In this document: positions 1 through 18,104 of the stretch, one piece after another
Position numbering within the stretch: position 1 is the stretch's first letter
How the letters are laid out: each line of letters starts with the position of its first letter
Assembly (NCBI GenBank): GCA_031372065.1
Contig: JANMKN010000318.1
Coordinates: 1 to 20,968 of the forward strand
Source: Abditibacteriaceae bacterium
GTDB taxonomy: Bacteria > Armatimonadota > Abditibacteriia > Abditibacteriales > Abditibacteriaceae
Direction: 5' to 3'
DNA length: 20,968 nucleotides
The notes under the pieces: generated by a model
Databases searched by the model: none
Seen by the model: only the letters and a program-made list of their open reading frames with translations
Told to the model about the DNA's origin: nothing
Made by a program: the position numbers and the translations under genes

Positions 1-1077
1 GCCGTCGGATGGGCCGCCGAGCAGAATTTCGCCGCCGCTTTCTCGCATTTGAGCGGCGCACCACGCGGCTTGCCGCGCATCGAAAAGCGCGCCGATGGAA
101 ACACCATTTTGCAGAGGATTTCCTGTTGTGAGCGCCGCTAATTTTTCTTTTAGGTGGTCGCGCACCTTTTCATAAATCGCCGGATGAACCAGCGCGCCGT
201 TGATGGAAGTGCAAGTTTGACCGTTATAACGCGTGGCGCCCTCGGCCAAAACTTGCGCGGCAGTTTCGGCGTTTTGATTTTCATCCACAAACGTCCACAC
301 ATTGCCCGCTCCATCAGCAATCGCGCTTTTTCCGGCTTCAAAAGTTTGCTTTAATATGTCCGGCGCGTGGCCGCTGCTGCCCATATAATGCAGCAAAAGG
401 GGAGTTTCTGATTCGCACAGCGCCGATACGAATTCTTTCGATTTGCAAAGCACCATGCTAATCGCATTCAGCGGCACATCGGCAATTTTCAAGGCGTGCG
501 CCAATAGCAAAGTCGAGCGAGCCGATTGCAAAGGCGCCCGCAAAACCACACGATTGCCGGTTGCCAAAGCATTAAAAATCGCCGTCAGACCGACTAATAA
601 AAACGCGTTTTGCGGCAGAATAATGGCAATCGTGCCCCACGGCACGCGCACCAAATTGATGCCTCGTTTTTGATTGTTCGCTTCGTAAAAAATCGGCGCA
701 TTTTGCGGGTTTTGCAGGCGCTTAAATTCCGCGCAAAATTGTTGGATGTAAGCGAGGCTGTCTTTGAGCAACTCTTCGCAATCGCGCGCGATAAAACCCG
801 TTTCGCGCTGCATCGCATCCCGCAAAGGTTCGCGCAATCCATGCAAGGCATTGTGCAAGCGCGACGCGAAGTTTTCGACTTCGCCGAAGGTTATTTTGAG
901 TGGTGTTTGCGGTGCAAATAACGCTTGCAATTCTTCATCAGAAAGCAGCTGCGCGCTTTGGATAAGGGAGCCATCGCACGGCGAAATTTGCTGGATCATT
1001 TCGCCGCTGCCGGAAAAATCGCCCCACAGCAGGTTTCCGCTGCGCCAAGGCGCGCCCAAGGAAGGAATTGAATTCAT
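1..1077 (-). CDS. Aldehyde dehydrogenase superfamily protein, divergent (3' end outside window)
   Basis: Missing from the ORF track because its stop is outside the window. Manual translation from ATG 1077 is open to base 1: MNSIPSLGAPW...VRVPWGTIAIILPQNAF...ALATGNRVVLRAP...HYMGSS...ADGAGNVWTFVD...RYNGQTCTSING...IGALFD. These match the ALDH motifs PxGVxxxIxPWN, GNxVVxKP, FTGS, ELGG and GQxC. The start overlaps the EamA stop (TAATG). Confidence 0.88.
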   Translation of the reverse strand, partial: MNSIPSLGAPWRSGNLLWGDFSGSGEMIQQISPCDGSLIQSAQLLSDEELQALFAPQTPLKITFGEVENFASRLHNALHGLREPLRDAMQRETGFIARDCEELLKDSLAYIQQFCAEFKRLQNPQNAPIFYEANNQKRGINLVRVPWGTIAIILPQNAFLLVGLTAIFNALATGNRVVLRAPLQSARSTLLLAHALKIADVPLNAISMVLCKSKEFVSALCESETPLLLHYMGSSGHAPDILKQTFEAGKSAIADGAGNVWTFVDENQNAETAAQVLAEGATRYNGQTCTSINGALVHPAIYEKVRDHLKEKLAALTTGNPLQNGVSIGALFDARQAAWCAAQMRESGGEILLGGPSDG

Positions 1078-2012
1078 TACTTGAAAAAGGAGGAGAAAAG
1101 ATTTTCAGGAAGACTAACCAGCAGCACGCCGAATAGGATAATAGCTATGCCAAGCCATTGAATTTTCGCCAATCGCTCTTTTAACAAGACCCAAGCCAAT
1201 AAAATGGTGACCACACTAAAAAGCGACGCCAGCGAGGTGACAACTGTGGTGAAGCCCAAACGATCACCATTAATAAAAGCCATCCACGATAAGCAATCCA
1301 CCACAGAAATGCTGCCGGCGAGGGCAAGAATGTTTTTCCACGAAAGGGCCGGGGGCGCACTTTCGGTAGCAACAGCTTCTATAGAGGACGAACGTGAATT
1401 AAGAGAAGCAGCCAAGCCCGCCACGGACAGCATGGTTGCCATGATTTTTAAACCGATCAGTGGCACAACAGGCCCCAGATGAACATCCAAAGGCTCCATC
1501 ATCCAAAACATAACGCCAAAACCGACCGCACAACCGAGGGCTTCGGGCACGCCGCGTAAGCCTTTGTTTGATTCATCTTCGTGGGCACTGGCGCGCGTGG
1601 CTAACACCACTCCAACAAAAAGCAGTGCGGCCCCAACCAGAATATAGGCCGGTAATTTTTCGCGCGTGCCCAGCGATAATAAAGCCGTTACAACAGCAAA
1701 GCTGGAGGCCAAAGGCGATACCAAAGCCAAGGTGCCAATTTCGAAAGCGCGATACGAAAGCACCAAACCTATGACATGACATAGTCCGGCGCCAATCAAC
1801 CAAAACCAAACTGGCACGCTGCCTTCATACTCCTGTAAGCCACTCCATTTGGCGACATTGAGTAGCGGCAATAAAATTATCCACGCCAACAAACTGGCCG
1901 ACTGCGCATAAACCATAGCCCGCATGGTGCCGACACCACGCGCCAGACACGTCACTAAATAATCACCAACACCCCATCCCAGCGCGGCCAAAAGGCCGAA
2001 GATAATTCCCAT
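1077..2012 (-). CDS. EamA/DMT family transporter
   Basis: 311 aa, about 10 hydrophobic helices in two repeated halves; typical segments LAALGWG, YRAFEIGTLALVSPL, TILLAWVLLKERL and QWLGIAIILFGVLLV. Confidence 0.92.
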   Translation of the reverse strand: MGIIFGLLAALGWGVGDYLVTCLARGVGTMRAMVYAQSASLLAWIILLPLLNVAKWSGLQEYEGSVPVWFWLIGAGLCHVIGLVLSYRAFEIGTLALVSPLASSFAVVTALLSLGTREKLPAYILVGAALLFVGVVLATRASAHEDESNKGLRGVPEALGCAVGFGVMFWMMEPLDVHLGPVVPLIGLKIMATMLSVAGLAASLNSRSSSIEAVATESAPPALSWKNILALAGSISVVDCLSWMAFINGDRLGFTTVVTSLASLFSVVTILLAWVLLKERLAKIQWLGIAIILFGVLLVSLPENLFSSFFK

Positions 2013-2018
2013 GACATG

Positions 2019-2060
2019 AAAACAAAAAAGGAGCGCGAAAAATGCGCCCCTTTTTGTTTT
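2019..2060 (-). terminator. Intrinsic terminator-like hairpin between methyltransferase B and the EamA gene
   Basis: Minus strand reads AAAAAGGGGCGC-ATTTTTC-GCGCTCC-TTTTTTGTTTT directly after the TAA at 2059-2061: a GC stem with one G-U pair followed by a U tract. Confidence 0.7.
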
Positions 2061-2862
2061 AGCTTGTGCTTTCTTTTTTTACGGCCCGGCCAAACATGAT
2101 GCTGCTGAATCCCTGCTCCGAATTATCAGGCACCTGCCGTGAGCGCACATCAATGTTGACGAACCCATTGCGGCGCAGCCAAGCCAGCAAATCTTCGGCG
2201 TTGACTCCGGCGCCGGGATAGCATCGTTCGCCAACACAATAATAATGATGGCCTTCGCAAGCCGCGAGAATCAAAGTGCCGCCCGGCTTGACCATGCTGG
2301 CGATGTTTTGCATATAAACATCCCATGTTTGCTTGCTGTCAGTAGAAGAATCGGCACAGCAATAAGAAACCACAAGGGGATAAAACTCGCGTTTTTCCGG
2401 CCCCAGTGGATTGCTTTGGGTCACATCACCCGGCCAAATGCCTTTGATGCGTTCGCGGGACAGTTGCTCACGTTCACGAGCTTCTTCATCCGTTGGATTG
2501 GCATTGCCTTCCAACTTCAACATATCTTTGGTGAAAATCAGCCAATCGTGGGCATCAGCATCGTTACTTAGCCATTTTTCGACTTCGGCACGGTTAGCCG
2601 GAAGAAATTCGGCCATGTGGACAGTTTTGGCTTTCAACACCATCGGCATACTGAAAAGCATGACGGGGCCAGTGCCAAATTCCAGAGCGACATCCACAGG
2701 CTCCACTTTCTGCATGGATTCGACGACCCATTCAACGGCATAATGCCCATCGAGCGTGATGTCGGCATAATATTCGTTGATGTAATCCTTGGAATTCCAA
2801 TCACTCCATTCGGCGTATTCAACAGCTTTTTCAACAGTTTGCACGGTTTCGTTTTGCGACAC
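2059..2862 (-). CDS. NNMT/PNMT/TEMT family SAM-dependent methyltransferase (paralog B)
   Basis: Start reassigned to GTG 2862, which has an AAGGAG RBS 6 nt upstream; 267 aa. Motifs YINEYY, LEFGTGP, AEFLPANRAEVEKWL..HDW, YCCADSS, VKPGGTLIL and YYCVGERCY parallel NNMT/PNMT motifs. Confidence 0.85.
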   Translation of the reverse strand: MSQNETVQTVEKAVEYAEWSDWNSKDYINEYYADITLDGHYAVEWVVESMQKVEPVDVALEFGTGPVMLFSMPMVLKAKTVHMAEFLPANRAEVEKWLSNDADAHDWLIFTKDMLKLEGNANPTDEEAREREQLSRERIKGIWPGDVTQSNPLGPEKREFYPLVVSYCCADSSTDSKQTWDVYMQNIASMVKPGGTLILAACEGHHYYCVGERCYPGAGVNAEDLLAWLRRNGFVNIDVRSRQVPDNSEQGFSSIMFGRAVKKESTS

Positions 2863-2885
2863 AGTTTTCTCCTTGTCGGGCCGAA

Positions 2886-3746
2886 TTAGGCCGAAGTTTT
2901 TACGCCGCAAGCAAAAATGACGCTGCCATATCCTTGTTCCGAATGATCGGGCACAAGGCGCACGCGCAAATCTATATTGCCGAAGCCATCTTCCTGCAAG
3001 GCTTGCAATACATCTTGCGCCGTTACGCCCGCACAAGGAAAAAGGCGCTCACCGACGCAGTAAAAGTTAGCGGCACCGCAAGCCGACAAAATCAAAGTGC
3101 CGCCCGGCGCCACCAACCCTGCGATGTTGCTCATATAACGCCGCCACGTTTTCTTGTCGTTGGTAGCGCCTTCGGCACAATAATGCGAAGTCACAAGAGG
3201 ATACGACGCGCGCTTTTCGAGGCCCAGCGGATTTTCATCGCCGGCATCGCCGGGCAGAACTGCGGTTACGCGTTCGCGCACTTGCTGCTCACGGGCACGC
3301 GCCTGAACGTCCAGAGTTTCGGGAGAAGTTCCCTCGGCTGAAACTTCTTCCAAGCGAAGAGTTTCGCGTGAAAACGGCAGCCAATCGTGTGTGGCTTGGC
3401 CGCGTAGCCAGCGTTCGACTTCCTCGCGGTTTGATTCCAAGTATTCCGCCAGATGAAGCTCCTGCACTTTAGGCAACAAAGGAAATAAATGATGCACTGT
3501 CGGGCCACAACCAAAATCAAGGGCCAATGACACGCTGCCAACTTTGCGCATGGATTCTACCAGAAATTCCATGGCATATCGTTCGTCTGCCATGACTTCT
3601 TCGTAGTATTCGGCCAGATAATTAGCTGGCTGCCACTCGCTCCAAGCCGCGTAAACAATTTCGGCAGATTCTGTGGCACCACTTTTTGAAGAATCCAGAC
3701 TTTTTCCTGCATTATCTGGAGTCTGAGTGGCTAAAATTGTTGACAT
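2886..3746 (-). CDS. NNMT/PNMT/TEMT family SAM-dependent methyltransferase (paralog A)
   Basis: Start reassigned to ATG 3746 (AGGGGG RBS); 286 aa. Motifs YLAEYY, LDFGCGPT, AEYLESNREEVERWL..HDW, HYCAEGA, LVAPGGTLIL and FYCVGERLF. Confidence 0.87.
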   Translation of the reverse strand: MSTILATQTPDNAGKSLDSSKSGATESAEIVYAAWSEWQPANYLAEYYEEVMADERYAMEFLVESMRKVGSVSLALDFGCGPTVHHLFPLLPKVQELHLAEYLESNREEVERWLRGQATHDWLPFSRETLRLEEVSAEGTSPETLDVQARAREQQVRERVTAVLPGDAGDENPLGLEKRASYPLVTSHYCAEGATNDKKTWRRYMSNIAGLVAPGGTLILSACGAANFYCVGERLFPCAGVTAQDVLQALQEDGFGNIDLRVRLVPDHSEQGYGSVIFACGVKTSA

Positions 3747-3822
3747 TCGGAAATCCCCCTGTTTCGAAAAATCACGGATATTTGCGCGCAAATGCTCACA
3801 AAATTGTATCCTTAATGCTTAG

Positions 3823-4076: not shown

Positions 4077-7000
4077 ATGCTCCTAACAGCGCGCCAAACA
4101 CGCACTAAGAACTATCTGCTACTCGCCACAGGCATTTATGCAGTAGTTTTTGTGGCAGTGCTGATAGCGCATCCTGGCGGGCCACTCTTCGATTTTTTGT
4201 TTGGCCTGTTTCGCCATCATTCTCCAACGCCCACCGATTTGGAAAATGCAGGCAAAATTTACAAGGATTTTGAAAATATTTATCAAATTCTGCCGCCTTT
4301 ATTCGCGGCGTGTTGCGCGATATTTTATGCCTTGCGTGGCTTTCATCTCCTCCCGAACCGCCGTGTCGGTTGGTTTTTGATTGGCATAGGCTGCTTTTTA
4401 TGGAGCATTGGACAAAGCACTTGGACTTACTATGAAACGCTACGCGGCGTGGATGTGCCATTTCCCGGTGGGGCCGATGTTGGTTATCTGGGCGGTTATC
4501 CATTCATCATTGTTGGCGTAGCTTTGCTGTTTGACAAAATGCCATTGTCGGGGCGCATTCGCCTCTTATTAGATAGCGCTTTAGCAGCCAGCAGTGTGGG
4601 CGTGGTAAGTTGGTATTTTCTTGTCAACAAGCTGTGGAGCGATGCGGGAGCCGACCTGCTTACGCGTCTGCTCACGGTAGCCTACCCACTCTCCGATATT
4701 ATCGTGCTGTTTTTTGCGTTGGTCTTGCTCAGTGGCGCATGGGATAACAAAGAAAGGCGCCTTTCTTTGGTTTGTTTGGCCGCAGGCATGATTTTGTTAG
4801 CCTGTGCCGATAGCCTTTTTAGCTATTACAACCTCATAGGTCTGTATCAGACGGGAAGTTGGTTCGATTGGTGTTTTGCTTTTGGCTGGCTCCTTATAGG
4901 ATATGCTTCGCTAATCCGTTTATGGCAGCGCCAAACAACAGAAACCGCCAATGCAGATGCTCCCCGATCATTTGCCGGGCAAGAATTGTTAGAATCGCGT
5001 CCATTTTGGCAATCGGTGACACTTGGTTTGTTAGCCCGTCTTTTAGCGCCTTACATTGCTGCATTTGGCGCCTTATCGTTGCTGACGTATACAGACTATA
5101 CCACGCCTAAAGCCTTAAATTTTCATTACCTGAGTAATACGGTCATCATGCTGGGGTTATGGTTGATTAATCTTGTTATTTTGCGTCAGGTTTTTACGTT
5201 ATTGGAAAACCAAAACCTCACACAACAATTAAGAGCTTTCAACACCACTTTGGAACAGAAGGTGGTTCAACGCACAGATCAAATCAATTCGCTTTTGCAA
5301 CTGGCTAAGGCTGTCAACAATACACGCGATTTCGATTTGGTCGTCAATGCGGCAGGCCAGCATACGTTACACGTTTTACAAGCCGATGCCGTCATCTTGT
5401 GGTCATCGGGGGGCGATGTGCCAGAAATGTCGCTGCCACCGCGAGTTTTTCCGGAAAATGTGCGTCAGGAATATCCGGGACTGATTAAATTCCTCACGGC
5501 CCACGACATGGTATCTGAAACGGCCATCGTTTCTTTGCAGGAAATTGCTGCCCAACATCCATCGCTCAAAGCAAAAGTGGCGCGCGGTGTTGTGGCTCCT
5601 CAAATCGGCGCCATTTCTACAGAGCTTGCATCCGAAAAATCGCTGGCGAATTTAAAGGGCCAATGTCTGATTGCCCCTTTGTTTTGGCAAGGCAAGGCCA
5701 TCGGCATGATCGCGGCGACCTCGTGGAACGAACCCTTCGAAGACGACGAAACAGCCATGCTGGAAAGCATTGGCGTTGAAGTTGGCACCGCCATGGAAAA
5801 TGCGCGGCTCTATGGCGCCGCCTTGAAAGCGGCTGACCGCGATTCCGTCACGGGACTGCTGAACCATCGTGCTGTCCATCAGCGCCTTGATGACGAATTT
5901 CAGCGCGCCCAGCATCAGGATCGTCCTTTGTCCGTCATTATGATGGATTTGAACAATTTCAAATTATTCAATGACACCTATGGGCATCCTGTGGGCGATC
6001 AGGTCTTGAAACGTGTCGCCCGCGCCTTGGAATCGGAATGCCGCAAGCCGGGCATTTTGGCGCGTTATGGTGGCGACGAATTCATCGCGGTCTTGCCCGA
6101 CACCGATGAACCCAAAGCGATGGTGCTGGCCCAGCGTTTGAGCGAGCGAATGAACCGCGAGGGATTTCAAGGTAGCAGCGATTCAACCACGGTGCCGATC
6201 TCACTTTCCTTTGGCGTGGCGAGTTATCCCGAAGATTGCACCAATCGTTTTGAATTGGTCACCATCGCTGACCGCAATTTGTATCAGGCGAAAGTCTCCG
6301 ACAGTGGCATCATGGGCACCACGGAATCTCAACGCACGCACCGTGCCCTGCGTAGCGAAGGTTCCTTTGATGTATTAGATGCCATGGTCACCGCCGTTGA
6401 TAACAAAGACCGTTATACGCGCCGGCATTCGGAGGATGTCACCGAATATGCGTTGTGGATCGCGGAAGAACTGGGTTACTCCGAAGGCACTCAACGCGTT
6501 ATTCGCATCGGCGGGCTTTTGCATGATGTTGGCAAAATTGGCGTGCCCGAAGATATTCTGCGCAAGCCCGGCAAACTCAGCAACGAAGAATACGAAACCA
6601 TGAAGCGGCACACCCAATTAGGCGCTTTGATTGTGGGCGGCGTATCCGGCATGGAATCTATTATTGACATCGTGAAATCGCATCACGAACGATGGGATGG
6701 CAAAGGTTACCCCGATGGTCTGGCAGGCGAAGACATTCCCTTGCTGGGCCGCTTGTTAGCGGTTGCCGATGCCCTAAGTGCCATGACAACAGATCGCCCC
6801 TATCGCAGAGGTTTTCCGTGGGAAAAAGCGGTGGAGGAGATTCGCAAAGGCATAGAAACTCAATTTGACCCCGAAATGGCAAAAGCCTTTTTAGCAGTAG
6901 CGGCCAAAGGTCGTCCAGGTTCCTCACATCATCAGCATTCTCCAATGGATAGTGACCGTTTCGCAGAGGAAAGTTTTTATGCGAGTGCGGCGCCCACCGA

Positions 7001-7121
7001 TGCCGTGGAGCCAAATGGCCCATCTGCGACATCTCAGAGTTTGGGCACTCAAAAGAGTTTAGGCACTCAGAACGACGAAGAGCAGGATTATCCAAATCCA
7101 AAACACTCTGCTTTGCCTTGA
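4077..7121 (+). CDS. Multi-pass membrane sensor / GAF / GGDEF / HD-GYP c-di-GMP turnover protein
   Basis: About 9 N-terminal TM segments including PFPGGADVGYLGGYP, a coiled linker, a GAF-like region ending AMENARLY, DSVTGLLNHR...FKLFNDTYGHPVGD...RYGGDEF, then RHSEDV...LLHDVGKIG...HHERWDGKGYP...RPYR. Confidence 0.93.
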   Translation: MLLTARQTRTKNYLLLATGIYAVVFVAVLIAHPGGPLFDFLFGLFRHHSPTPTDLENAGKIYKDFENIYQILPPLFAACCAIFYALRGFHLLPNRRVGWFLIGIGCFLWSIGQSTWTYYETLRGVDVPFPGGADVGYLGGYPFIIVGVALLFDKMPLSGRIRLLLDSALAASSVGVVSWYFLVNKLWSDAGADLLTRLLTVAYPLSDIIVLFFALVLLSGAWDNKERRLSLVCLAAGMILLACADSLFSYYNLIGLYQTGSWFDWCFAFGWLLIGYASLIRLWQRQTTETANADAPRSFAGQELLESRPFWQSVTLGLLARLLAPYIAAFGALSLLTYTDYTTPKALNFHYLSNTVIMLGLWLINLVILRQVFTLLENQNLTQQLRAFNTTLEQKVVQRTDQINSLLQLAKAVNNTRDFDLVVNAAGQHTLHVLQADAVILWSSGGDVPEMSLPPRVFPENVRQEYPGLIKFLTAHDMVSETAIVSLQEIAAQHPSLKAKVARGVVAPQIGAISTELASEKSLANLKGQCLIAPLFWQGKAIGMIAATSWNEPFEDDETAMLESIGVEVGTAMENARLYGAALKAADRDSVTGLLNHRAVHQRLDDEFQRAQHQDRPLSVIMMDLNNFKLFNDTYGHPVGDQVLKRVARALESECRKPGILARYGGDEFIAVLPDTDEPKAMVLAQRLSERMNREGFQGSSDSTTVPISLSFGVASYPEDCTNRFELVTIADRNLYQAKVSDSGIMGTTESQRTHRALRSEGSFDVLDAMVTAVDNKDRYTRRHSEDVTEYALWIAEELGYSEGTQRVIRIGGLLHDVGKIGVPEDILRKPGKLSNEEYETMKRHTQLGALIVGGVSGMESIIDIVKSHHERWDGKGYPDGLAGEDIPLLGRLLAVADALSAMTTDRPYRRGFPWEKAVEEIRKGIETQFDPEMAKAFLAVAAKGRPGSSHHQHSPMDSDRFAEESFYASAAPTDAVEPNGPSATSQSLGTQKSLGTQNDEEQDYPNPKHSALP
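7036..7071 (+). repeat. 18-bp tandem duplication in the C-terminal tail
   Basis: AGAGTTTGGGCACTCAAA / AGAGTTTAGGCACTCAGA (16/18 identical), encoding QSLGTQ-KSLGTQ. Confidence 0.8.
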
Positions 7122-7275
7122 GTTTCTTACAAAAAACACAAAAAGAAGGTTTTTGCGCATTCATAAGTTACTCTGATAAGTCAATTATCACTAAAAACTT
7201 CTCACTTTTAGATAAGATATTTTTCGAGCCAATTTCTTGATCTGGAACTTGATTTGAAAAAGGAGAGCTTGCCAC

Positions 7276-8748
7276 ATGATCACAGCTTCAAACTACTCAG
7301 ACCTTCTGACACAATTTTCTGACAAGCATTTGGTGACTCTCTCCACGGGTGCGACTTGCGCTTATTTGGGTGATGAACGCAATTTGCGAGAATTTTTAGT
7401 TGCGGACGAAGCCGCGCGGTGGCTGCGTCGCGCCGGACATACAGTTGTATTTTTTCTTATAGACGACAGTCTTGACCCCTTGAATTTTCGCCAATTGCGT
7501 GTGGCCGTCAACAAGAACGAAGAGTTGATCGAAAAATTTCAGCATTGGTGTGGCAAGCCTATCGCTCATCTGCCCGATCCGTGGGGCTGCCACGAATCGT
7601 ATGCGGCGCATTTTGAAGAAGAACTGGTTGACCGCCTGCATCGCCTTGATTGTCACCCGACTTTAGTTACCACAGCGCAGCTTTATGAGCGCGGTGTTTA
7701 CAAGCCTTATGTCACGCTTGTGCTGGAACGTTATGACGAAATCATGGCGTTTTTTGCCGAGCGTTTTCCCGCCTATAAACCGGACAAACTGTTCTGGCCC
7801 ATTTGCCCCCATTGCCGTTATATTCATGAAACGCGCGTGGAAGCTATTGTCAATCAATCCATCGAGATTTGCTGCGACCATTGCAATAAACGCTCAATTG
7901 TGCCGATTGAGGAAGTCGAAGGCAAATTGAACTGGAAATTAGATTGTGCGGTGCGCTGGACGGTGTTCAATATTGATTGTGAACCGTTCAATAAAAAGTA
8001 TCTCGAACCCCAAACCGGCACCGTGCCGATTGCACAAGCCGTTTGCGCCGAGTTTTTCAATGGCCCCGATGTCGTTCCGCTGCTTTACGGCACTGTGGAA
8101 ATGAAAAAAGAGTTGTCTTACAAATTGCTGGATTCGCTGCCCACCACGGTTTTGCGTAGTATGATGACCGAGCGTCCGGCCACAGACATTAATTTATCGC
8201 AGGAAAAAATCATGACCGCTGTTTCACGTTTCGGCGTGTTACCCGGCCTCAGTTATCTGGATTTCATCAAACAGCTTTTGCCAATGTGGCTTTTGACGCC
8301 CGAAAAGCTGACGCAATCGCAGCGTGATTTAGTGGCGAATGGCATCGCCTTTAGCCAAAACTTTTTGGATGCCAATATTTGTTTGCAAATGCCGACCAGA
8401 GCGCATTTTCAAGATCAAACGGTGCCTGTTATTCGCGAAGTGCGCAATTTGCTGCGCGAAGTGATTCGCTTGCGACAAGAAGAAGACCCGGAATGGGAAG
8501 AATTCCAGGATTTAATCAAGCAAATCATCGCCACGATGGGCACACATAAAGGGCAGGCTTTGCATCGCTTGCGCGTGTTGGTAGGGCAAGAACAGGGAAT
8601 GCCCGCCGGACGTTTTCTTTTTGTGCTGCCACTTGACTATTTAAGTGTGCTGGAATACATATGCGACCTGTTTGTGCAGGCTAACACCGATAGATCAGTC
8701 GAAACTCCGGTTTTTGCCAATGGCGTTCCACTGTCCACAGCGGTGTGA
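7276..8748 (+). CDS. Class I lysyl-tRNA synthetase-like protein (paralog with degenerate ATP-binding motifs)
   Basis: AAGGAG RBS. LysRS-I-like blocks: NLRE, DDSLD, GKPIAHLPDPWGCHESYAAHF, LYERGVY, CPHC/CDHC Zn pairs, GKLNWKLDCAVRW...IDCEP, and C-terminal LVGQEQG. HIGN is replaced by DERN and there is no KMSxS motif. Confidence 0.85.
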   Translation: MITASNYSDLLTQFSDKHLVTLSTGATCAYLGDERNLREFLVADEAARWLRRAGHTVVFFLIDDSLDPLNFRQLRVAVNKNEELIEKFQHWCGKPIAHLPDPWGCHESYAAHFEEELVDRLHRLDCHPTLVTTAQLYERGVYKPYVTLVLERYDEIMAFFAERFPAYKPDKLFWPICPHCRYIHETRVEAIVNQSIEICCDHCNKRSIVPIEEVEGKLNWKLDCAVRWTVFNIDCEPFNKKYLEPQTGTVPIAQAVCAEFFNGPDVVPLLYGTVEMKKELSYKLLDSLPTTVLRSMMTERPATDINLSQEKIMTAVSRFGVLPGLSYLDFIKQLLPMWLLTPEKLTQSQRDLVANGIAFSQNFLDANICLQMPTRAHFQDQTVPVIREVRNLLREVIRLRQEEDPEWEEFQDLIKQIIATMGTHKGQALHRLRVLVGQEQGMPAGRFLFVLPLDYLSVLEYICDLFVQANTDRSVETPVFANGVPLSTAV

Positions 8749-8786
8749 TTTTCGCGGGCATTTTGCGACAAGGCATTTCATCGAAA

Positions 8787-9779
8787 ATGAAACGATTTCT
8801 CAATTACACAGCGTTCTTTTGGGTTGCGAGCGCATTTGCGACGTTTTCGGTTCACGTCCAAGCGCAAAATGCGGTTCAACCAGCACAACCAGCCGCACAA
8901 GAATCAAACCCACCCGGCACGACAACCGAGGAGGAAAAGGCCGAACCGACAGGGATATTCGCCGGGGCTGATTTATATTATGGATTCGGCAATTTGCCCG
9001 GTTTTCGGCATTTTCGCGATGGATTTTGGGCCGCAGGCTCCAGTTTGGCCTACCCGTCACACGTTTATGTGCGCTCTAACACCAAGAGCGGCGCACAAGC
9101 CAAATTAGCGATTTCGCTGGGCGAGATTTACAACGGTTCCACAAGTTTTGACCAGCCTATCGAAGCCTGGTGGAAGCAACCACTCAAAAGCAACAACTCG
9201 ACCAAAAGTTCGGTGACATTGGGCAAGTTTTATGTTCCCTTTGCCTTGCAGGAATGGGAATACGAGACCAAATGGGGCGCGCTTTACGAAGGCGAATGGA
9301 ATGCCACCACCCTTGGCGCCGCCATGGTTTACAATCGCAACGTTGATCATGCAAACGGTTATGCTCGCGTGGGACACAATTTCGGAGAACGTCTCAATGT
9401 CGGCATCTCACTGGCCACCGGCAGTGGTTTGATGTATGACACGGTGCATGACAAAGCCATCGGCGTTGATCTGACAGGGTCTGCAGGCGATTGGGAAGTG
9501 TTAGCCGAATATATGGGCGCAAGGGGCACTGCCGCACAGCGTTTTCGTTTTGGTTGGGCACGCTTGAATTACAATAAATGGCAGCGCTTCAAGCCTTTTG
9601 CGGCGCGCTACGATTATAAGGACACCACAGGCGCATTCGGCACCTATCGTTCCTATGTGGCCGGGGCCAGCTACGCGCTACGCCCTGATCTTCAAGTTGA
9701 AGGCGGCTACGCTGTCGCTACGGGTAAAAATATCTGGTTTGCTCAAATTCATTGGACACCAGAACGAAAAGTCAAATAA
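8787..9779 (+). CDS. Secreted outer-membrane beta-barrel (porin-like) protein
   Basis: Signal peptide MKRFLNY...VQA from ATG 8787 (alternative GTG 8745 overlaps the upstream stop). A low-complexity linker is followed by amphipathic Gly/aromatic-rich strands, LGKFYVPF (porin-like) and a terminal strand WFAQIHW. Confidence 0.7.
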   Translation: MKRFLNYTAFFWVASAFATFSVHVQAQNAVQPAQPAAQESNPPGTTTEEEKAEPTGIFAGADLYYGFGNLPGFRHFRDGFWAAGSSLAYPSHVYVRSNTKSGAQAKLAISLGEIYNGSTSFDQPIEAWWKQPLKSNNSTKSSVTLGKFYVPFALQEWEYETKWGALYEGEWNATTLGAAMVYNRNVDHANGYARVGHNFGERLNVGISLATGSGLMYDTVHDKAIGVDLTGSAGDWEVLAEYMGARGTAAQRFRFGWARLNYNKWQRFKPFAARYDYKDTTGAFGTYRSYVAGASYALRPDLQVEGGYAVATGKNIWFAQIHWTPERKVK

Positions 9780-9895
9780 TAATTAAAGCGCCTCGAAATG
9801 GCGCCAAAGCGGTCATAAAGTAAATATTTCACAAAAATACCTACAATCATCAGATTTTTAAGTATGTTTGTAATGCTGTAGTAATGCGCGAGGTG

Positions 9896-9927
9896 TATAT
9901 TAAAAGAGCGTTAGTCCAGACTAACGC
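9896..9927 (+). promoter_or_regulatory. Candidate -10 box plus a 20-bp palindrome with perfect 9-bp arms upstream of the receiver gene
   Basis: TATATT at 9896-9901; GCGTTAGTC-CA-GACTAACGC at 9908-9927. Confidence 0.5.
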
Positions 9928-9949
9928 CAGAACTAAAGAAGGAATAAAC

Positions 9950-10363
9950 ATGAACGAGGAAATTTCGTTCCGCGCGCGGCGTCTGCCAAAAGTGTCTGAC
10001 ACTTATCGCATTTTGATTGTCGAAGACGAAATCGAAGTGTCGCGCCTAATCGGTATGGCATTGGAAAGTCGCGGCTATAAATTCAAGCCGGCTCTTGATG
10101 GCGCGCAGGCATTAGAAGTTTTCAGCGGCTTTGATCCCCATATGGTGCTGCTGGACTTAACGATGCCGGGCATTAGTGGGCAAGAAGTTTACGACGCTAT
10201 TCGCAGCATGAGCGATGTGCCAGTTATGGTGGTGAGCGCTTTAGTCGGCGATAGAGACATTCCGTTACCAGAAGGCGTGGCCGGACAAATGAGCAAGCCC
10301 TTCAGCCCACCCAATCTCGTGCGCCGTGTGCAAGCTGTGTTAGAAGAAACTTACGGGACGTGA
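9950..10363 (+). CDS. Single-domain response regulator receiver (CheY-like)
   Basis: ATG 9950 with AAGGA RBS; RILIVEDE, LLDLTMPG (phospho-Asp), VVSA and SKPF; no output domain. Confidence 0.9.
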   Translation: MNEEISFRARRLPKVSDTYRILIVEDEIEVSRLIGMALESRGYKFKPALDGAQALEVFSGFDPHMVLLDLTMPGISGQEVYDAIRSMSDVPVMVVSALVGDRDIPLPEGVAGQMSKPFSPPNLVRRVQAVLEETYGT

Positions 10364-10367
10364 CCAC

Positions 10368-10397
10368 AAAAATTGATGCTTAAAAAATTGATGCTTA
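10368..10397. repeat. Perfect 15-bp tandem direct repeat
   Basis: AAAAATTGATGCTTA twice (10368-10382, 10383-10397), followed by TTGAC-N7-GTCAA (10398-10414). Confidence 0.85.
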
Positions 10398-10478
10398 TTG
10401 ACGTTTTTAGTCAAATCACAAAAAGCCGATTTTAATTTGTTCGCAGTCAACCGGTTGAGATTACCTGTTTATAAGCCG

Positions 10479-10805
10479 ATGCCTTACCTTGCCGAATCAA
10501 ATCACCAAAATTCCGATTATCAAAATGCGGGTCTTTCGACTCTGTCGGAAATCTCGCCGCAGCCCCCTGTCGAGCGCATTTTCATGGAAAACGAAGAATA
10601 TCAATTTTATGCGCGTTGCCGCCGTGCTATTTTGCTGTTGAATGCTCAATTAGTCAAAGCCGCCGCCGAACGCAGCGAGTTTGCGCCTTTTTTGCTGGAA
10701 GCGATGGGCAATGCCATGTCCGAGTTGCTGGAACACGGCGATGAACGCGATTTATTGCTGTTGGAGCAGTGGCTCGACGAAGAAAACGAGCCGCATAGCG
10801 CCTAA
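10479..10805 (+). CDS. Small hypothetical acidic helical protein
   Basis: ORF of 108 aa from ATG 10479 (alternative ATG 10584) with an amphipathic helical C-terminal half; co-oriented with neighbours and followed by a strong hairpin. Start uncertain. Confidence 0.6.
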   Translation: MPYLAESNHQNSDYQNAGLSTLSEISPQPPVERIFMENEEYQFYARCRRAILLLNAQLVKAAAERSEFAPFLLEAMGNAMSELLEHGDERDLLLLEQWLDEENEPHSA

Positions 10806-11178: not shown

Positions 11179-12426
11179 ATGTCTTTTGAAATGCCGCATT
11201 TGCGCCAATTTGACCCCGAAGTCGCCGCTGCCATTGACGCCGAATTAAATCGTCAACGCAACACTTTAGAAATGATCGCCTCGGAAAATTTCGTTTCAGA
11301 AGCCATCATGGAAGCCACCGGCTGCGTGATGACCAACAAGTATGCCGAAGGCTATCCCGGCAAGCGTTATTACGGCGGTTGCGACGAGGTTGACGTTGTG
11401 GAAAACCTCGCTATTGAGCGCGCCAAGCAGCTTTTCGGTGCCGAACACGCCAATGTGCAGCCACATTCGGGTAGTCAGGCCAACGCGGGCGTGTTTTTGG
11501 CGCTTTTGCAGGCGGGCGACACCTTTTTGGGCATGAACTTGGCCGCCGGAGGCCATTTAACGCACGGCCACAAGATGAATTTCAGCGGCAAATTATATAG
11601 TCCGATTTCCTACGGCCTTGACCGCGAAACCGAGCGCATTGATTACAACGAAGTGCGCCGTTTAGCCAAAGAACACTCGCCCAAACTGATTATCGCCGGT
11701 TTTTCGGCTTATCCGCGCGCGATTGAATGGGAAAATTTCCGCGAAATCGCCGATGAAGTCGGCGCGCTTTTCATGGTGGACATGGCGCACGTCGCCGGAC
11801 TTGTCGCGGCGGGCGAATATCCGAATCCCGTGCCACACGCCGATGTTGTCACCACGACCACGCACAAAACACTGCGCGGCCCGCGCGCCGGTTTGATTTT
11901 GTGCAAAAGCGAACACGCCACGGCCATTGACAAAGCGATTATGCCCGGCATTCAAGGCGGCCCGCTGATGCACGTTATCGCCGCCAAAGCTGTGTGTTTG
12001 AAAGAAGCGATGGAGCCGGGATTCAAAGATTATCAGCGTCAAATACGCGTCAATGCCAGCGCTTTGGCCGACGGTTTAATCGCTGGCGGCTTGCGTTTGG
12101 TCACAGGCGGCACCGATAACCATTTGGTTTTGGTTGACCTGACGCCCGCTGATATTACCGGCAAAGACGCCGAAATTTTGCTGGAACACGTCGGCATTAC
12201 TTGCAACAAAAACCAGATTCCCTTTGATCCGCGCCCGCCTTTGGTCACGTCCGGCGTGCGTTTGGGCGTTCCGGCTTTGACCACGCGCGGCCTCAAAGAA
12301 GCCGAAATGAGCGCCATCGCGGATATTATCTGCGAAGCCGTCAAAAAGCGCGGCGACGAGGAAGAATTGCAGCTTTTGCAAGGCCAAGTTGCGCAAATCT
12401 GCGAGCGTTTTCCACTTTACGTTTAA
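11179..12426 (+). CDS. glyA: Serine hydroxymethyltransferase
   Basis: [54 protein letters not shown] (PLP lysine), GGTDNH; AAGGA RBS. Confidence 0.99.
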
Positions 12427-12460
12427 GCTAAGTATTCGGACAGAATTATGTGAGGCTTTG

Positions 12461-12544
12461 CGTCATTCTGAGGGAGCCTAAGCGACTGAAGAATCCCCAT
12501 TAGGCAAGGGGATTCTTCAGTCGCTTAGGCTCCCTCAGAATGAC
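12461..12544. repeat. REP-like perfect inverted repeat (37-bp arms, 9-nt loop)
   Basis: GTCATTCTGAGGGAGCCTAAGCGACTGAAGAATCCCC (12462-12498) and its exact reverse complement (12508-12544); begins with CGTC. Confidence 0.9.
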
Positions 12545-12594
12545 AAACCTTCTTTAATCTAATTGTGTCCACCTACTTATATATAATTAAGTTC

Positions 12595-13563
12595 ATGAAT
12601 GAATACTGGAAAAATCGGCTCGCGCAATTCGATGGAGTCCCGATTGTAGATGTTTTTGGCGTGTCAATGAGTGATAGTGGCCGCGGATGGTCATCCCTTG
12701 AGCAAAAATCGTCAAGTGATCGCGACGGTCTTGGATTAACTGGTTTCGATATGGAGTTATGGCGAGTGGGAGATGGCAAGATTGAAGCTACATTGACTCA
12801 TGTAACTGCAATCCTTAGTTACAATCAATGGGGGTCTCTTGTGGGCGAAGGAGGATATTTACGCTCTCATCCTGTTTTTCACATCAAAGCGAAAGTCGCT
12901 CAAAACCCGGCAGGCTTCCAAGAATTTCTATTTGTGGAATGGGTCGGCCCTGCCTCTAATGATACTGAGTTGAATCATCTTTTCTACCAACTGAGACAAC
13001 CTGTTACTCTTGATGCGCCACCGCTGCCACCTCTTCAACTATCCACTTATGATGGCTCTTGGAGTGGGCAAATTTCTCTACCTTCATGGGATGGATTCGA
13101 CCTTCAATCAGAGCCAAATTACGGAGGGAAGGGAACAGTATTTCCATTGGGTATAGGTTCAGAGCCTATGCCAATCGTCAGGTTAGGCTATCAAGGCGTT
13201 CCGCCTTCGCCAGAACAAGCAGCGGCTTACGTTTATTTAGTTGAGAACGACAAAGTTGTTCAAAATGCCCTGTTGCAAGCCATTTTGGATGTTTATCCTG
13301 AATGGCAGGCCGAGTGGGGCGGCGACCTTGAATATATGCCCGATGTGAACCACGTAAGGGAATTCCAATCGCTGCTTATACTTTGGGATTTGTCTATCTT
13401 GAATGATGTGAAAGAAGGTTACGCTTACGTCTACTTTAACCTTATTCCCAATTGGGATGTGGAACATGGTTTGGGTGCCATTTTACACAAGGATCGTGTA
13501 GTGGCGGTGGACAATCACGATTCACTCTATAAGGTAATCGAACGAGATATAGAATCGAATTAA
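12595..13563 (+). CDS. Hypothetical protein; C-terminal domain resembles DUF6985-type proteins
   Basis: 322 aa from ATG 12595; C-terminal PSPEQAAAYVYLVEN...LLQAI..VYP...WDVEHGLGAILH pattern; visibly more AT-rich than flanking glyA and ppdK. The domain name is recalled, not verified. Confidence 0.7.
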   Translation: MNEYWKNRLAQFDGVPIVDVFGVSMSDSGRGWSSLEQKSSSDRDGLGLTGFDMELWRVGDGKIEATLTHVTAILSYNQWGSLVGEGGYLRSHPVFHIKAKVAQNPAGFQEFLFVEWVGPASNDTELNHLFYQLRQPVTLDAPPLPPLQLSTYDGSWSGQISLPSWDGFDLQSEPNYGGKGTVFPLGIGSEPMPIVRLGYQGVPPSPEQAAAYVYLVENDKVVQNALLQAILDVYPEWQAEWGGDLEYMPDVNHVREFQSLLILWDLSILNDVKEGYAYVYFNLIPNWDVEHGLGAILHKDRVVAVDNHDSLYKVIERDIESN

Positions 13564-13572
13564 AGCAAACAC

Positions 13573-13606
13573 AAAAGCGGCACGCTCTTTCGAGCGCGCC
13601 GCTTTT
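13573..13606. terminator. Bidirectional intrinsic terminator between convergent genes
   Basis: AAAAGCGGCACGCTC-TTTC-GAGCGCGCCGCTTTT with A/T tracts on both sides. Confidence 0.85.
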
Positions 13607-13623
13607 ATTTTACAACACCGAAT

Positions 13624-16296
13624 TTACTTCGATTCCAACGCGGCTTGCGCTGCTGCTAAACGGGCAACGGGCACGCGTTTGGGGCTGCACGAAACGTAGT
13701 TGAGGCCGAGTTTGTTGCAGAACTTGACGCTGTCGGGGTCGCCGCCGTGTTCGCCGCAGATGCCGAGTTTGATCTTCGGGTTCACGCTGCGCGCGTCGTC
13801 CACGCAGATTTGCATCAGGCGGCCTACGCCGGTAGTGTCAATCGAAACCGTCGGGTCTTCCTTGTAGATTTCCTTGGCGATGTAAGGCATCAGGAACGGG
13901 CCAGCATCGTCGCGGCTCATGCCGTAGGTCATCTGCGTCAGGTCGTTGGTGCCGAAAGAGAAGAAGCTGGCTTCCAAAGCGATTTCCTTGCTGGTCAAAG
14001 CGGCGCGCGGCACTTCGATCATGGTGCCGAACATATAATCCACTTCGATGCCCGCTTTGGCCGCTGTGGCTTTGGCGATGCGTTCGAGATCGTTTTTCAC
14101 ATAGGTCAGCTCGTTGATGTGGCCGACCAGCGGAATCATGATTTCAGGATGCACGTCAATGCCTTCCTTTTTCACAACCGCCGCCGCGCCGATGATGGCC
14201 GCGACTTGCATTTCCACGATGCCGGGGAACACGATGGACAGGCGCACGCCGCGCAGACCGAGCATCGGGTTCATCTCGTGCATTTCCGCCACTTTGTTGA
14301 GCAGTTTGGTTTTTTCCGCATCTTTGCCGCCGCCCGCTTCGAGAACTGCCAGTTCTTTGGCCAGTTCCATCTGGTTCGGCATGAATTCGTGCAACGGTGG
14401 GTCAATTAAACGCACCGTCACGGGCTTGCCGTGCATGGCGCGGAAGATGCCTTCAAAGTCGCCCTGCTGAATCGGCAACAGCTCGTCGAGAGCTTTCTGA
14501 CGCGAGGCTTCGTCTTCCGCCAAAATCATGCGGCGCACAATCGGCAGACGATCTTCCTCCAAGAACATATGCTCGGTGCGGCAAAGGCCAATGCCTTCGG
14601 CGCCCAAAGCTAAGGCTTCTTCGGCTTGTTCGGGCGTGTCGGCGTTGGCGCGCACACCCATGGTGCGGAACTCATCGGCCCAGCCCATCAGCGTGCCGAA
14701 GTCGCCACTTTGTCCGGCGGCTTCGACATCCAAAGCGCCGTTGTAAACGATGCCGTCGGTGCCGTCAATGGTAATCCAGTCGCCTTCTTTAATCACGGTG
14801 CCGTCGGGCGTGGTGAATTGCGTGGCGTGATGGCCGTCGAGTTTAATATCCGAGCAGCCGCAAATGGTTGGAATGCCGAACTGACGCGCCACCAAAGCCG
14901 CGTGCGAAGTGCGTCCGCCGCGCGCCGTCAAAACGCCTTGCGCGGCCAACATTCCTTTCAAGTCGTCGGGCGTGGTTTCTTGCGAGCAAAGGATAACCGC
15001 TTTGCCTTCGCCGCCCTTGCCCAGTTCCGCCGCGCGGTCGCTGGAGAAAACAGCCATGCCAACAGCGCCGCCGGGGCCAGCATTCAGGCCGCGCGCGATG
15101 ACTTTGCCGTCTTTGGTGTTCTTCAAACGCGGATGCAGCGCTTGTTCCAAGCCAGAAGGCGCCACCATTTTCACGGCGGTTTCTTTGGTGATGAAATTCT
15201 CTTTCACCATTTCCACAGCGATGCGAATCGCAGCCGTGCCGGTGCGCTTTCCGCTGCGGCATTGCAGGATGAACAGCTTGTTCTTTTCGATGGTGAACTC
15301 AATGTCCTGCATATCCTTGTAGTGATTCTCAAGGCGACGGGCATTGGCAATCAGTTCGTCGTAAATCGCTTTGTTGTCGGCTTCCAGTTCGGCGATTTCG
15401 CGCGGTGTGCGCACGCCGGCCACTACGTCTTCGCCTTGCGCGTTGGGCAGATATTCGCCATAAATCACGTTCTCGCCGGTCGCGGCATTGCGCGTAAACA
15501 TCACGCCGGAGCCGGAATCGTCGCCCATGTTGCCGAAAACCATGCTCTGCACGTTGACGGCGGTGCCAATCGAGTGCGAGATTTTTTCTTTGTTGCGATA
15601 AATGATGGCGCGCTCGTTGTTCCAAGAACGGAACACAGCGGTAATCGAAGTTTCAAGCTGCTCGTAAGGGTCAGTGGGAAAGTCGCGGCCCGTCTGCTCT
15701 TTGAAAAACACTTTATAGATGTCGCAGAGCGCTTTCCAGTCGGCACCAGTCAGTTCGGTGTCTTCGACTTTGCCGAGTTTTTCTTTATGATCGGACAAAA
15801 TGCGCTCGAAGCCGTCTTTGGAAAGGCCGGGATAATCGGCTTTGAGCGTGATGTCCGAAAACATCATGATAAAGCGGCGATACGAGTCGTAAGCGAAACG
15901 GTCATTGCCGCCGGACGCGCTGATGAGGCCTTCGATGGCGTCATCGTTGAGGCCAAGGTTGAGAACGGTGTCCATCATGCCGGGCAGCGAGAACTTGGCG
16001 CCCGAACGCACGGAAAAGAGCAGCGGGTTTTTGTTGTCGCCGAACTTCTTGCCGATTTGCTTTTCGACATCTTCGACGGCGGTTTTCACATCGTCCATCA
16101 GGCCGGCGGGAATTTGCTTTCCATTGGCGTAATATTCGGTGCAGACTTCGGTCGTGACCGTAAAGCCGGGCGGGACGGGTAGGCCAATATTGGTCATTTC
16201 GGCTAAGTTAGCGCCTTTGCCGCCCAGTAAATCTTTCAATTCTTTCTTGCCTTCGCGGAACAGCCACACGCGATTATTTGGGGTCGAACTACTCAC
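13624..16296 (-). CDS. ppdK: Pyruvate, phosphate dikinase
   Basis: LLGGKGANLAEM, SVRSGA, GEDVVAG, GGRTSHAA (phospho-His), GLCRTEHMF, NPMLGLRG, GTNDLTQ, ICGEHGGDP; GTG start with GGAGG RBS. Confidence 0.99.
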   Translation of the reverse strand: MSSSTPNNRVWLFREGKKELKDLLGGKGANLAEMTNIGLPVPPGFTVTTEVCTEYYANGKQIPAGLMDDVKTAVEDVEKQIGKKFGDNKNPLLFSVRSGAKFSLPGMMDTVLNLGLNDDAIEGLISASGGNDRFAYDSYRRFIMMFSDITLKADYPGLSKDGFERILSDHKEKLGKVEDTELTGADWKALCDIYKVFFKEQTGRDFPTDPYEQLETSITAVFRSWNNERAIIYRNKEKISHSIGTAVNVQSMVFGNMGDDSGSGVMFTRNAATGENVIYGEYLPNAQGEDVVAGVRTPREIAELEADNKAIYDELIANARRLENHYKDMQDIEFTIEKNKLFILQCRSGKRTGTAAIRIAVEMVKENFITKETAVKMVAPSGLEQALHPRLKNTKDGKVIARGLNAGPGGAVGMAVFSSDRAAELGKGGEGKAVILCSQETTPDDLKGMLAAQGVLTARGGRTSHAALVARQFGIPTICGCSDIKLDGHHATQFTTPDGTVIKEGDWITIDGTDGIVYNGALDVEAAGQSGDFGTLMGWADEFRTMGVRANADTPEQAEEALALGAEGIGLCRTEHMFLEEDRLPIVRRMILAEDEASRQKALDELLPIQQGDFEGIFRAMHGKPVTVRLIDPPLHEFMPNQMELAKELAVLEAGGGKDAEKTKLLNKVAEMHEMNPMLGLRGVRLSIVFPGIVEMQVAAIIGAAAVVKKEGIDVHPEIMIPLVGHINELTYVKNDLERIAKATAAKAGIEVDYMFGTMIEVPRAALTSKEIALEASFFSFGTNDLTQMTYGMSRDDAGPFLMPYIAKEIYKEDPTVSIDTTGVGRLMQICVDDARSVNPKIKLGICGEHGGDPDSVKFCNKLGLNYVSCSPKRVPVARLAAAQAALESK

Positions 16297-16389
16297 AGTT
16301 TTGGGTTTCCTCCGGGTAAATTTGCCTCAAACAGGATAGCACGCGAGGCTTGAGGCGACAATTAGAACAGGATAAACTTTCAACTTGCT

Positions 16390-16683: not shown

Positions 16684-16691
16684 CGTGCTAA

Positions 16692-16844: not shown

Positions 16845-16857
16845 AAGGCACTTCTCT

Positions 16858-17766: not shown

Positions 17767-17771
17767 AAAAC

Positions 17772-18089: not shown

Positions 18090-18104
18090 AAATCGGCGCT
18101 TTTT
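18061..18104. terminator. Bidirectional intrinsic terminator
   Basis: AAAAAAGCGCCGATTT-loop-AAATCGGCGCTTTTT between convergent genes. Confidence 0.85.

Follow-up and report, generated by a model that had tools for sequence, protein, structure and literature searches.

What does a class I lysyl-tRNA synthetase (LysRS) do once it has given up the motifs with which such enzymes handle ATP? The question is raised by a contig of an Abditibacteriaceae bacterium (GenBank JANMKN010000318.1, assembly GCA_031372065.1; 20,968 nucleotides (nt), analysed whole and hereafter called the window), in which the gene at 7276..8748 encodes a full-length LysRS paralog. A sequence-only reading had put its product forward as a candidate aminoacyl-tRNA synthetase-derived pseudo-enzyme that senses a ligand, or as a repurposed enzyme with a new chemistry. 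The paralog belongs to a family that is neither a decaying nor a housekeeping copy of LysRS and whose constant neighbor is an aldehyde dehydrogenase (ALDH)-like protein. On the reading that we favor, at a probability of roughly 0.45, it would take the lysyl group from Lys-tRNA independently of ATP, together with that partner.

Architecture and motifs of the LysRS paralog

The features of the gene are as follows.

7260..7265, plus strand: AAGGAG, Shine-Dalgarno-like, seen in the sequence 10 nt 5' of the ATG
7276..8748, plus strand: full-length class I LysRS paralog without HIGH, GxD and KMSKS, 490 amino acids
7348..7392, plus strand: family signature GATCAYLGDERNLRE (residues 25-39), replacing GITPSGYVHVGNFRE in the alignment
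7489..7515, plus strand: family-specific insertion RQLRVAVNK (residues 72-80), with Q73, R75 and K80 conserved
7804..7884, plus strand: two CxxC pairs (C177, C180, C200, C203), a zinc ribbon as in LysRS1
7921..7959, plus strand: GKLNWKLDCAVRW, in which W220 (W218 of 1irx) is kept and a canonical Trp has become C224, by alignment
7990..8001, plus strand: NKKY replacing GKDH; Gly and Asp are gone and the aromatic/His is retained at 242, by alignment
8086..8157, plus strand: Y271..R294, site of the KMSKS loop deletion, by alignment
8401..8673, plus strand: helical C-terminal domain, homologue of the anticodon domain, with the altered surface motif LRxxVGQxxG, by alignment and fold

The reading frame is uninterrupted over its 490 amino acids, and the intact frame and ribosome-binding site of the sequence-only reading both stand. 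The gene is identical to one contig of run X1, which is possibly the window's own source and hence not independent; two X2 pieces (7113-7410 and 7997-8385) likewise match without a differing letter. In profile searches the protein matches PF01921 at 7.7e-45, and the P. horikoshii LysRS (1irx) is matched at E 1.3e-25; its TIGR00467 score of 128.9 lies under the cut-off of 147.55. An AlphaFold2 model built with 119 sequences (pLDDT 94, pTM 0.86) was superposed on 1irx and matches it between residues 5 and 465 (Z 30.4, root-mean-square deviation (rmsd) 4.8, 438 aligned; Foldseek E 3.7e-23); it contains all three domains of 1irx, namely the Rossmann catalytic domain, the zinc ribbon and the helical anticodon domain. 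The profile match, the 1irx match and the superposition together uphold the earlier view that the protein follows class I LysRS end to end. Its second-best fold match is BshC (PDB 4wbd; Z 19.4, rmsd 3.7, 285 aligned).

The fate of the individual motifs was followed in an alignment of 52 rows of subfamily 1, to which the window's gene belongs, 11 rows of subfamily 2 and 53 canonical-like rows picked from profile hits and host genomes. Because the span from G25 to E39 is 15 residues long in both sets (51/52 family rows, 53/53 canonical-like rows), the canonical HVGN aligns with DERN without a gap; where the HIGH-type HxGN has His and Gly, each in 52/53 canonical rows, the family has D33 and R35 in 52/52. 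Elsewhere in the signature E39 is equally invariant (52/52), T27 is found in 49/52 and position 28 is variable (Cys in 27, Thr in 14, Ser in 10). An alternative register that equates YLGD with HIGN (HLGD in 4/52 rows) is disfavored by the gapless span and by the helix that starts at E34 in the model, and C28 was rejected as a universal nucleophile, being Thr or Ser outside Armatimonadota. The GxD after the fourth strand (Gly 52/53, Asp or Glu 51/53 in canonical rows) has given way to mostly Ser or Asn at 239 and mostly Ala, Ser or Lys at 241. A KMSS-like pattern, found in 40/53 canonical rows, occurs in 0/52 paralogs of subfamily 1 and 0/11 of subfamily 2, and the Y271..R294 span has a median of 24 residues in the family versus 35 in canonical rows. 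All three replacements had been proposed from the sequence, including a segment shortened by about a dozen residues, which the alignment puts at 11.

The loss of these ATP elements is accompanied by retention of the amino-acid pocket, again as proposed. G25 (51/52), T27, E39, W220 (51/52), Tyr or His at 242 (51/52) and Y271 (45/52) correspond to G27, T29, E41, W218, H240 and Y268 of 1irx, residues that presumably bind lysine in that enzyme. The four ribbon cysteines are each kept in 52/52 rows, making zinc a probable ligand, and K217, K221 and R227 are kept likewise. Two features had escaped the sequence-only reading: an insertion of 8 residues (the D64..P95 span is 32 residues in the family and 24 in canonical rows) and the replacement at position 224 of a Trp found in 53/53 canonical rows by Cys in 46/52 rows of subfamily 1 and 9/11 of subfamily 2. 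A CysRS-like zinc site was considered for this region and rejected: W220..C224 resembles W205..C209 of E. coli CysRS by eye, a profile comparison gives a probability of 0.65%, and equivalents of C28 and H234 are also missing in the paralog.

The C-terminus has changed as well, and its PF19269 match (E 0.14) falls below the cut-off. Relative to canonical rows, subfamily 1 replaces a Tyr (53/53) by Leu, a Phe (47/53) by Val, Leu or Ala, and an Arg or Lys (46/53) by Pro or Ser; subfamily 2 retains the canonical Tyr in 9/11. The canonical residues F487, Y491 and GPR presumably serve tRNA recognition. Subfamily 1 has an R433 (50/52) and a Q438 (45/52) of its own. Mean identity within the family is 26% in this domain versus 53% in the N-terminal catalytic half, which is 35% identical among canonical rows.

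Distribution, selection and other LysRS in the host genomes

A protein search returned 282 matches at E <= 0.001 among 7997 candidates. The best 120 of the 282 share 42-88% identity, those that carry a name are from Armatimonadota or Abditibacteriota, and LGDER and RE are near-invariant among them. Cultured species also carry homologs, namely Capsulimonas corticalis (CCAX7_39560 and CCAX7_39530) and Abditibacterium utsteinense; some members are named lysine--tRNA ligase in their source records, which looks like misannotation, and in the Atlas the top match is a PF01921 cluster of 76 members that was named automatically. A genome scan extended the family to 58 loci, including Patescibacteria, Nitrospirota, Eisenbacteria, Gammaproteobacteria and others. 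Presence is patchy. Of 301 genomes sampled from the phylum, 25 match the family profile, 20 of them true members and 5 canonical LysRS1. The gene occurs in 1/401 genomes of a Patescibacteria sample, that one being the sample's own center genome (two further hits turned out to be canonical LysRS), and in 2/151 relatives of genome G313. Two scans for viral relatives found none, and plasmids gave seven weak partial hits, none reaching 80% coverage. A search for more subfamily 2 loci yielded one metagenome locus only.

In a tree of 116 sequences, 63/63 paralogs group in a single long-branched clade (support 1.0), which emerges from LysRS1 sequences and divides into the two subfamilies. The ratio of nonsynonymous to synonymous substitution rates (dN/dS) is 0.03-0.18 in close pairs (dN 0.088 and dS 2.0 between the window's gene and that of locus L008) and 0.4-0.8 in distant pairs, where dS is saturated. 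The expectation that DERN is conserved and under purifying selection is thus borne out by the invariance of D33 and R35 and by the close-pair ratios. As a side observation, several cassette genes of one locus (L007 2454-11471) are broken by apparent frameshifts, probably sequencing errors in the assembly.

The window's genome (94% complete) carries a class II lysS at G000:C227, and the paralog is its single PF01921 hit over the cut-off. Host genomes were examined for 41 of the 58 loci, and 32 of these genomes have a class II LysRS hit at E <= 1e-40, in 30 of them over the cut-off; among the nine genomes without such a hit, seven carry a second, canonical class I gene with a HIGH-type motif. 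Another LysRS is therefore found in 39/41 host genomes, as the sequence-only reading had supposed in denying the paralog a housekeeping role; in G308 and G316, whose completeness is not given, only the paralog was found.

An ALDH-like protein as the constant partner

Neighborhoods were surveyed by six-frame profile searches of the window plus the 58 loci (59 in all), with profiles built from those same 59 loci and thresholds of our own setting. The constant neighbor, a link that the sequence-only reading had not drawn, is the following.

1..1077, minus strand: ALDH-like protein, truncated by the contig end, with Cys in RYNGQTCTS and a DGxGN motif

Its family is found at 49/59 loci. Of the ten loci without it, L012, L033 and L061 belong to genomes that encode it in another place; in the other seven the contig runs out within 4 kb on the upstream side, and the search for these went no further. 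In the phylum sample it occurs in 19/301 genomes, all among the 20 with the paralog, and in the twentieth (L007) it is in pieces; this co-occurrence is a plain count rather than a test, and the kin are not independent. Pairwise identities of the two proteins correlate with r 0.85 over 32 loci.

Among 120 homologs, the catalytic Cys is kept in 120, and Asp (120) and Asn (119) of DGxGN stand in place of ELGGK; an Arg replaces the cofactor Lys in 120 and G380 replaces the second Glu of EExFGP in 119. Judged against hydrolytic ALDHs, the partner thus has the catalytic Cys and is without the general-base Glu of ELGGK and the second Glu of EExFGP, and its DGAGN lines up with the AGAGN motif of EutE, an acylating enzyme. 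Its family profile scores AldA at 131 and PatD at 128 bits versus 42 for EutE and 35 for ProA; the LuxC hit is weak, and no named NCBIfam cut-off was passed among the best 25 matches of each of three members. Because the Cys is kept in all 120 homologs, cysteine chemistry is predicted to be retained.

Receptors, transport and cassette layouts

The remaining genes of the window's cassette are listed here.

1077..2012, minus strand: EamA/DMT-family transporter; family in 31/59 loci
2059..3036, minus strand: NNMT/PNMT/TEMT-family methyltransferase 1; family in 11/59 loci
2886..3791, minus strand: NNMT/PNMT/TEMT-family methyltransferase 2, by profile match
4077..7121, plus strand: membrane sensor domain-GAF-GGDEF-HD-GYP protein; GGDEF, HDVGK and HHERWDGKGYP motifs present
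8745..9779, plus strand: conserved protein of no known family, overlapping the stop of the paralog; 16/59 loci

Across the 59 loci the membrane sensor occurs at 31 and a family 3 solute-binding protein at 19; the two never co-occur and together cover 50. Either of two porin-like genes is present at 27 loci, and signalling genes at 47. In the Armatimonadota layout, the minus strand carries the ALDH-like gene, EamA and the methyltransferases, and the plus strand the sensor-GGDEF-HD-GYP gene, the paralog and a porin-like gene; in most loci of this type the paralog lies co-oriented directly behind the GGDEF/HD-GYP gene. A second layout comprises the paralog, the binding protein, the ALDH-like gene, a HAMP kinase (weak Cache hits in 3/5 tested) and a receiver-GGDEF-EAL or kinase gene. 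In Patescibacteria the paralog, the ALDH-like gene and EamA are accompanied by a stand-alone sensor and a kinase. The GGDEF/HD-GYP neighbor is accordingly replaced by binding protein and histidine kinase at 19 loci and by stand-alone sensor and kinase at 5 Patescibacteria loci.

The multi-pass membrane sensor (window 4077-5276) is homologous to the 266-amino-acid stand-alone genes of those five loci (L054-L058; E 1e-14 to 7e-12), being fused to GGDEF/HD-GYP in one case and placed before a kinase in the other. It matches no Pfam family, and its best Atlas hits are nameless clusters, with MASE3, MASE4 and 7TM leads below 0.9. In the binding proteins the pocket is near-identical in 18/18 rows of the alignment: it has the Arg and Asp by which amino-acid binders presumably hold their ligand, plus an added Glu, a combination suggestive of a ligand that resembles an amino acid and bears additional positive charge. 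The EamA protein is likely an exporter. The 8745-9779 protein has no Pfam hit and is a putative secreted protein or outer-membrane barrel; a weak TorF-porin-like gene is found in 11 other loci. Methyltransferase 1 probably starts downstream of its listed start. Both methyltransferases exceed the cut-off of 60 of NF041360 (115 and 81 bits), a model named for the guanitoxin enzyme GntF; no further guanitoxin pathway gene lies among the scanned neighbors (the genome itself was not searched for the pathway), and the label is probably too broad for them.

The one subfamily 2 locus with a known context (L103 809-6323) lies on a contig of archaeal appearance, beside a canonical LysRS1 and ribosomal genes of archaeal type, and its signature reads GITTAY..NQLRE. 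The gene order is nucleotidyltransferase (NTase)-like (PF01909 E 0.005, below the cut-off), paralog, ALDH, zinc alcohol dehydrogenase and metallo-beta-lactamase fold; no signalling gene is among its 12 listed open reading frames. Its ALDH reaches 224 bits on the partner's profile versus 131 for E. coli AldA.

Several further observations concern the surroundings of the cassette. A tRNA-Lys lies within 1.5 kb, at the cassette end, in 2/32 loci scanned (L017 12929-13001, L018 12727-12800), which could reflect integration at that site, a functional connection or coincidence. A beta-hydroxyacid dehydrogenase stands beside the cassette in three Abditibacterium-type loci (L013, L014, L016, at about 12.0-13.0 kb), as do aldo-keto reductase hits in L010 (1705-2913) and L055 (11667-12680); such extra oxidoreductases may be linked to the cassette and would fit an aldehyde intermediate. 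In two Oleiphilaceae loci (L041 1-3556; L044 4827-9723) the cassette is 3' of the arginine succinyltransferase genes AstA, AstD-like and AstB. Downstream in the window lie a lone receiver protein and a 135-amino-acid protein of no assigned family (9884-10805), followed at 11179-20885 by glyA-like, DUF6985, pyruvate phosphate dikinase-like, SWIM-domain and purK-like genes (the glyA, dikinase and purK names were given by eye); outside the closest relative, genes past 9884 do not stay with the cassette. Rfam found only three tRNAs in seven sources, with no riboswitch and no T-box; promoter-like sites are at chance level (6 vs 7.7), and sets of 22 and 56 upstream regions showed no operator in common.

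A proposed ATP-independent user of Lys-tRNA

How might these parts work together? The cassette as a whole is probably a make-export-sense system, in which the paralog and the ALDH-like protein would form a two-protein biosynthetic module. In the favored mechanism, the paralog would no longer activate lysine with ATP; charging would be left to the housekeeping LysRS, and the paralog would bind the resulting Lys-tRNA at its aminoacyl end and run an acyl transfer alone, much as a cyclodipeptide synthase (CDPS) does, possibly via T27, the Cys, Ser or Thr at 28, or C224. The ALDH cysteine would receive or convert the acyl product, or the ALDH-like protein would supply the acceptor. The product would be a small amine or amino acid derived from lysine, perhaps N-methylated in some lineages; it would exit through EamA and be read by the membrane sensor or the periplasmic amino-acid-binding protein, with cyclic di-GMP (c-di-GMP) or kinase output.

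The tRNA-dependent step is favored because the paralog repeats the CDPS pattern, in which the pocket is kept and both ATP motifs are dropped, and because SbzA offers a precedent for transfer. In the available part of PMC3105412, AlbC is a class I synthetase-derived CDPS without HIGH and the KMSKS loop that uses charged tRNA and not ATP; in that of PMC6331615, the IleRS-like SbzA is a full-length class I synthetase that transfers from Ile-tRNA, keeps HIGH and KMSKS and charges weakly. Congruent with this mechanism, HIGH, GxD and KMSKS are lost together while the pocket residues are kept in 45 to 52 of 52 rows, and the catalytic half is more conserved in the family than among canonical rows. Pairing with the ALDH-like protein is near-obligate, the receptors are mutually exclusive, and the subfamily 2 member is directly followed by a related ALDH.

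Other observations pull in the opposite direction. Activity, ligand, protein-protein complex and expression are all predictions from sequence. Because the canonical anticodon residues are replaced and the C-terminal domain is relatively relaxed, binding of tRNA-Lys is not assured. There is no single invariant nucleophile, given the variability at position 28, and a T27 equivalent is common in canonical LysRS1 too (Thr in 32, Ser in 18 of 53). The Trp-to-Cys change at 224 may alter the pocket, and the ligand is possibly not lysine. The ALDH-like protein is nearer to the hydrolytic AldA than to the acyl-reducing EutE and ProA; the identity correlation of 0.85 also follows from shared descent of the cassette, and subfamily 2 contributes the context of a single locus. 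A more specific proposal, doubtful as a whole, joins the two proteins into a split aminoacyl-tRNA-converting enzyme, in which one would hold Lys-tRNA and the other would take the lysyl group on the ALDH cysteine and release a novel lysine-derived cell-to-cell signal; this signal would depend on the pool of charged tRNA, have two unrelated types of receptor, and be common to Armatimonadota, Patescibacteria, Nitrospirota, Eisenbacteria and Gammaproteobacteria.

Which other functions would account for the same data? The main rival, which we consider rather unlikely, makes the paralog a noncatalytic, tRNA-independent subunit of the ALDH-like protein that binds lysine or a related amine and switches the dehydrogenase on, or presents the amine to its thioacyl intermediate, on the model of HisZ, which serves HisG. 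The strict pairing, the kept pocket, the lost ATP site and canonical anticodon residues, and the lack of an invariant nucleophile would all suit such a subunit, and the new R433/Q438 surface could serve as its protein interface. However, the ATP site has been rebuilt with invariant polar residues (D33, R35, R75, K80), more than a passive binder seems to need, the zinc ribbon is retained with K217, K221 and R227, and no conserved neighbor gene supplies an aldehyde substrate. The new invariant basic residues R35, R38, R75 and K80 could instead bind phosphates in a nucleotide-dependent ligase, whose rebuilt site (DER plus RQLR..K) would join lysine to a non-tRNA acceptor; MshC and GluQ are precedents, and the below-threshold NTase-like gene precedes the subfamily 2 gene. 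We hold this improbable, as the HIGH Gly is Arg in 52/52, the GxD Asp is variable and the KMSKS loop is deleted, whereas SbzA, with some charging left, keeps both motifs (PMC6331615, available part).

The sequence-only reading had pointed to the adjacent c-di-GMP enzyme, with the paralog sensing lysine or uncharged tRNA and signalling directly to the GGDEF/HD-GYP protein. The co-oriented position behind that gene in most Armatimonadota-type loci and the signalling genes at 47/59 loci speak for such a link, but the output module varies by clade and has its own extracytoplasmic input, no signalling gene is listed at L103, and it is the ALDH-like protein that stays constant while the neighbor is swapped in 19 + 5 loci. 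Direct signalling is thus quite improbable and no longer the main story; the pseudo-enzyme proposal keeps its altered ATP motifs, its kept pocket and its non-housekeeping status and loses the c-di-GMP neighbor as main partner, and its new-chemistry option would fit the data better than its sensor option. A backup or stress LysRS with weak charging is very unlikely. Its full-length architecture, the two of 41 genomes in which only the paralog was found, the tRNA-Lys near 2/32 cassettes and the measurable rates retained by LeuRS mutants with alanine in HVGH and KMSKS (PMC10450160, available part) can be cited for it; those mutants, however, retain the Gly and the loop, another LysRS is present in 39/41 genomes, the canonical anticodon residues are gone and the ALDH pairing is left unexplained. 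Simple decay of a redundant lysS copy could claim the patchy presence (20/301 and 1/401 sampled genomes) and the high ratios of distant pairs, where dS is saturated, but we count it as already refuted by conservation: the new motif is invariant across several phyla, close pairs have dN/dS of 0.03-0.18, and 63/63 paralogs form one clade with support 1.0.

The cassette brings its own test kit of a candidate synthase pair, an exporter and two receptor kinds, among which the soluble binding protein could capture the ligand from spent medium.

Comparison with known systems

No description of this family was found in the literature searched, which had limited coverage of most subscription papers. 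The available part of review PMC9437257 names only LysU, PoxA and LysX on the lysine side of repurposed synthetases, and in that of review PMC12945691 LysRS or lysyl has zero occurrences. The paralog falls outside the LysRS1, CDPS and SbzA-type families as each is defined. With class I LysRS (1irx, PF01921, TIGR00467) it shares fold, domain order, zinc ribbon and pocket residues; it differs in lacking HIGH, GxD and KMSKS, in its 8-residue insertion, C224 and altered anticodon residues, in scoring under the TIGR00467 cut-off, and in being a second copy beside another LysRS in 39/41 host genomes.

Synthetase folds that no longer charge tRNA are familiar, and GCN2 retains one. The available part of PMC9437257 describes HisZ and SLIMP in the same terms; these three are class II, and none has an ALDH partner or stands together with an exporter and a receptor. 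BshC, the second-best fold match, is a putative ligase presumed to need a pre-activated amino acid of undefined form (PMC5790435, available part); the likeness is one of fold, with 7% identity, other domains, a place in the bacillithiol pathway and a reaction that is not established. Closer in the proposed use of aminoacyl-tRNA are SbzA and the AlaRS-like AcmF, both of them synthetase-like proteins that hand an aminoacyl group from charged tRNA on to a small molecule (PMC6331615 and PMC12945691, available parts). Both come from antibiotic clusters and do not stand beside receptors, neither is LysRS-derived, and SbzA keeps the HIGH and KMSKS motifs that the paralog has lost.

Two further systems resemble the proposed cassette by function. 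Glutamyl-tRNA reductase converts an aminoacyl-tRNA through a Cys thioester, and LuxP/LuxQ-type cassettes place a binding protein and kinase receptor beside a synthase; the analogy is functional only, and no kinship of sequence or fold is claimed.

The nearest parallel is with the CDPSs AlbC and Rv2275, which, in the available part of PMC3105412, are likewise without HIGH and the KMSKS loop, keep the pocket, and place a hydroxyl residue two positions past the strand Gly (S37 after G35, as T27 after G25). [quoted passage not shown] The model's 50 listed fold matches include no CDPS, although the two may still be kin. On best reading, then, the paralog works like an aminoacyl-tRNA-dependent synthetase paralog, a known kind. 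It would represent a second route, besides that of the CDPSs, by which a class I synthetase sheds both ATP motifs, and one that, unlike the CDPS route, retains the full length of the enzyme and gains a fixed ALDH partner.

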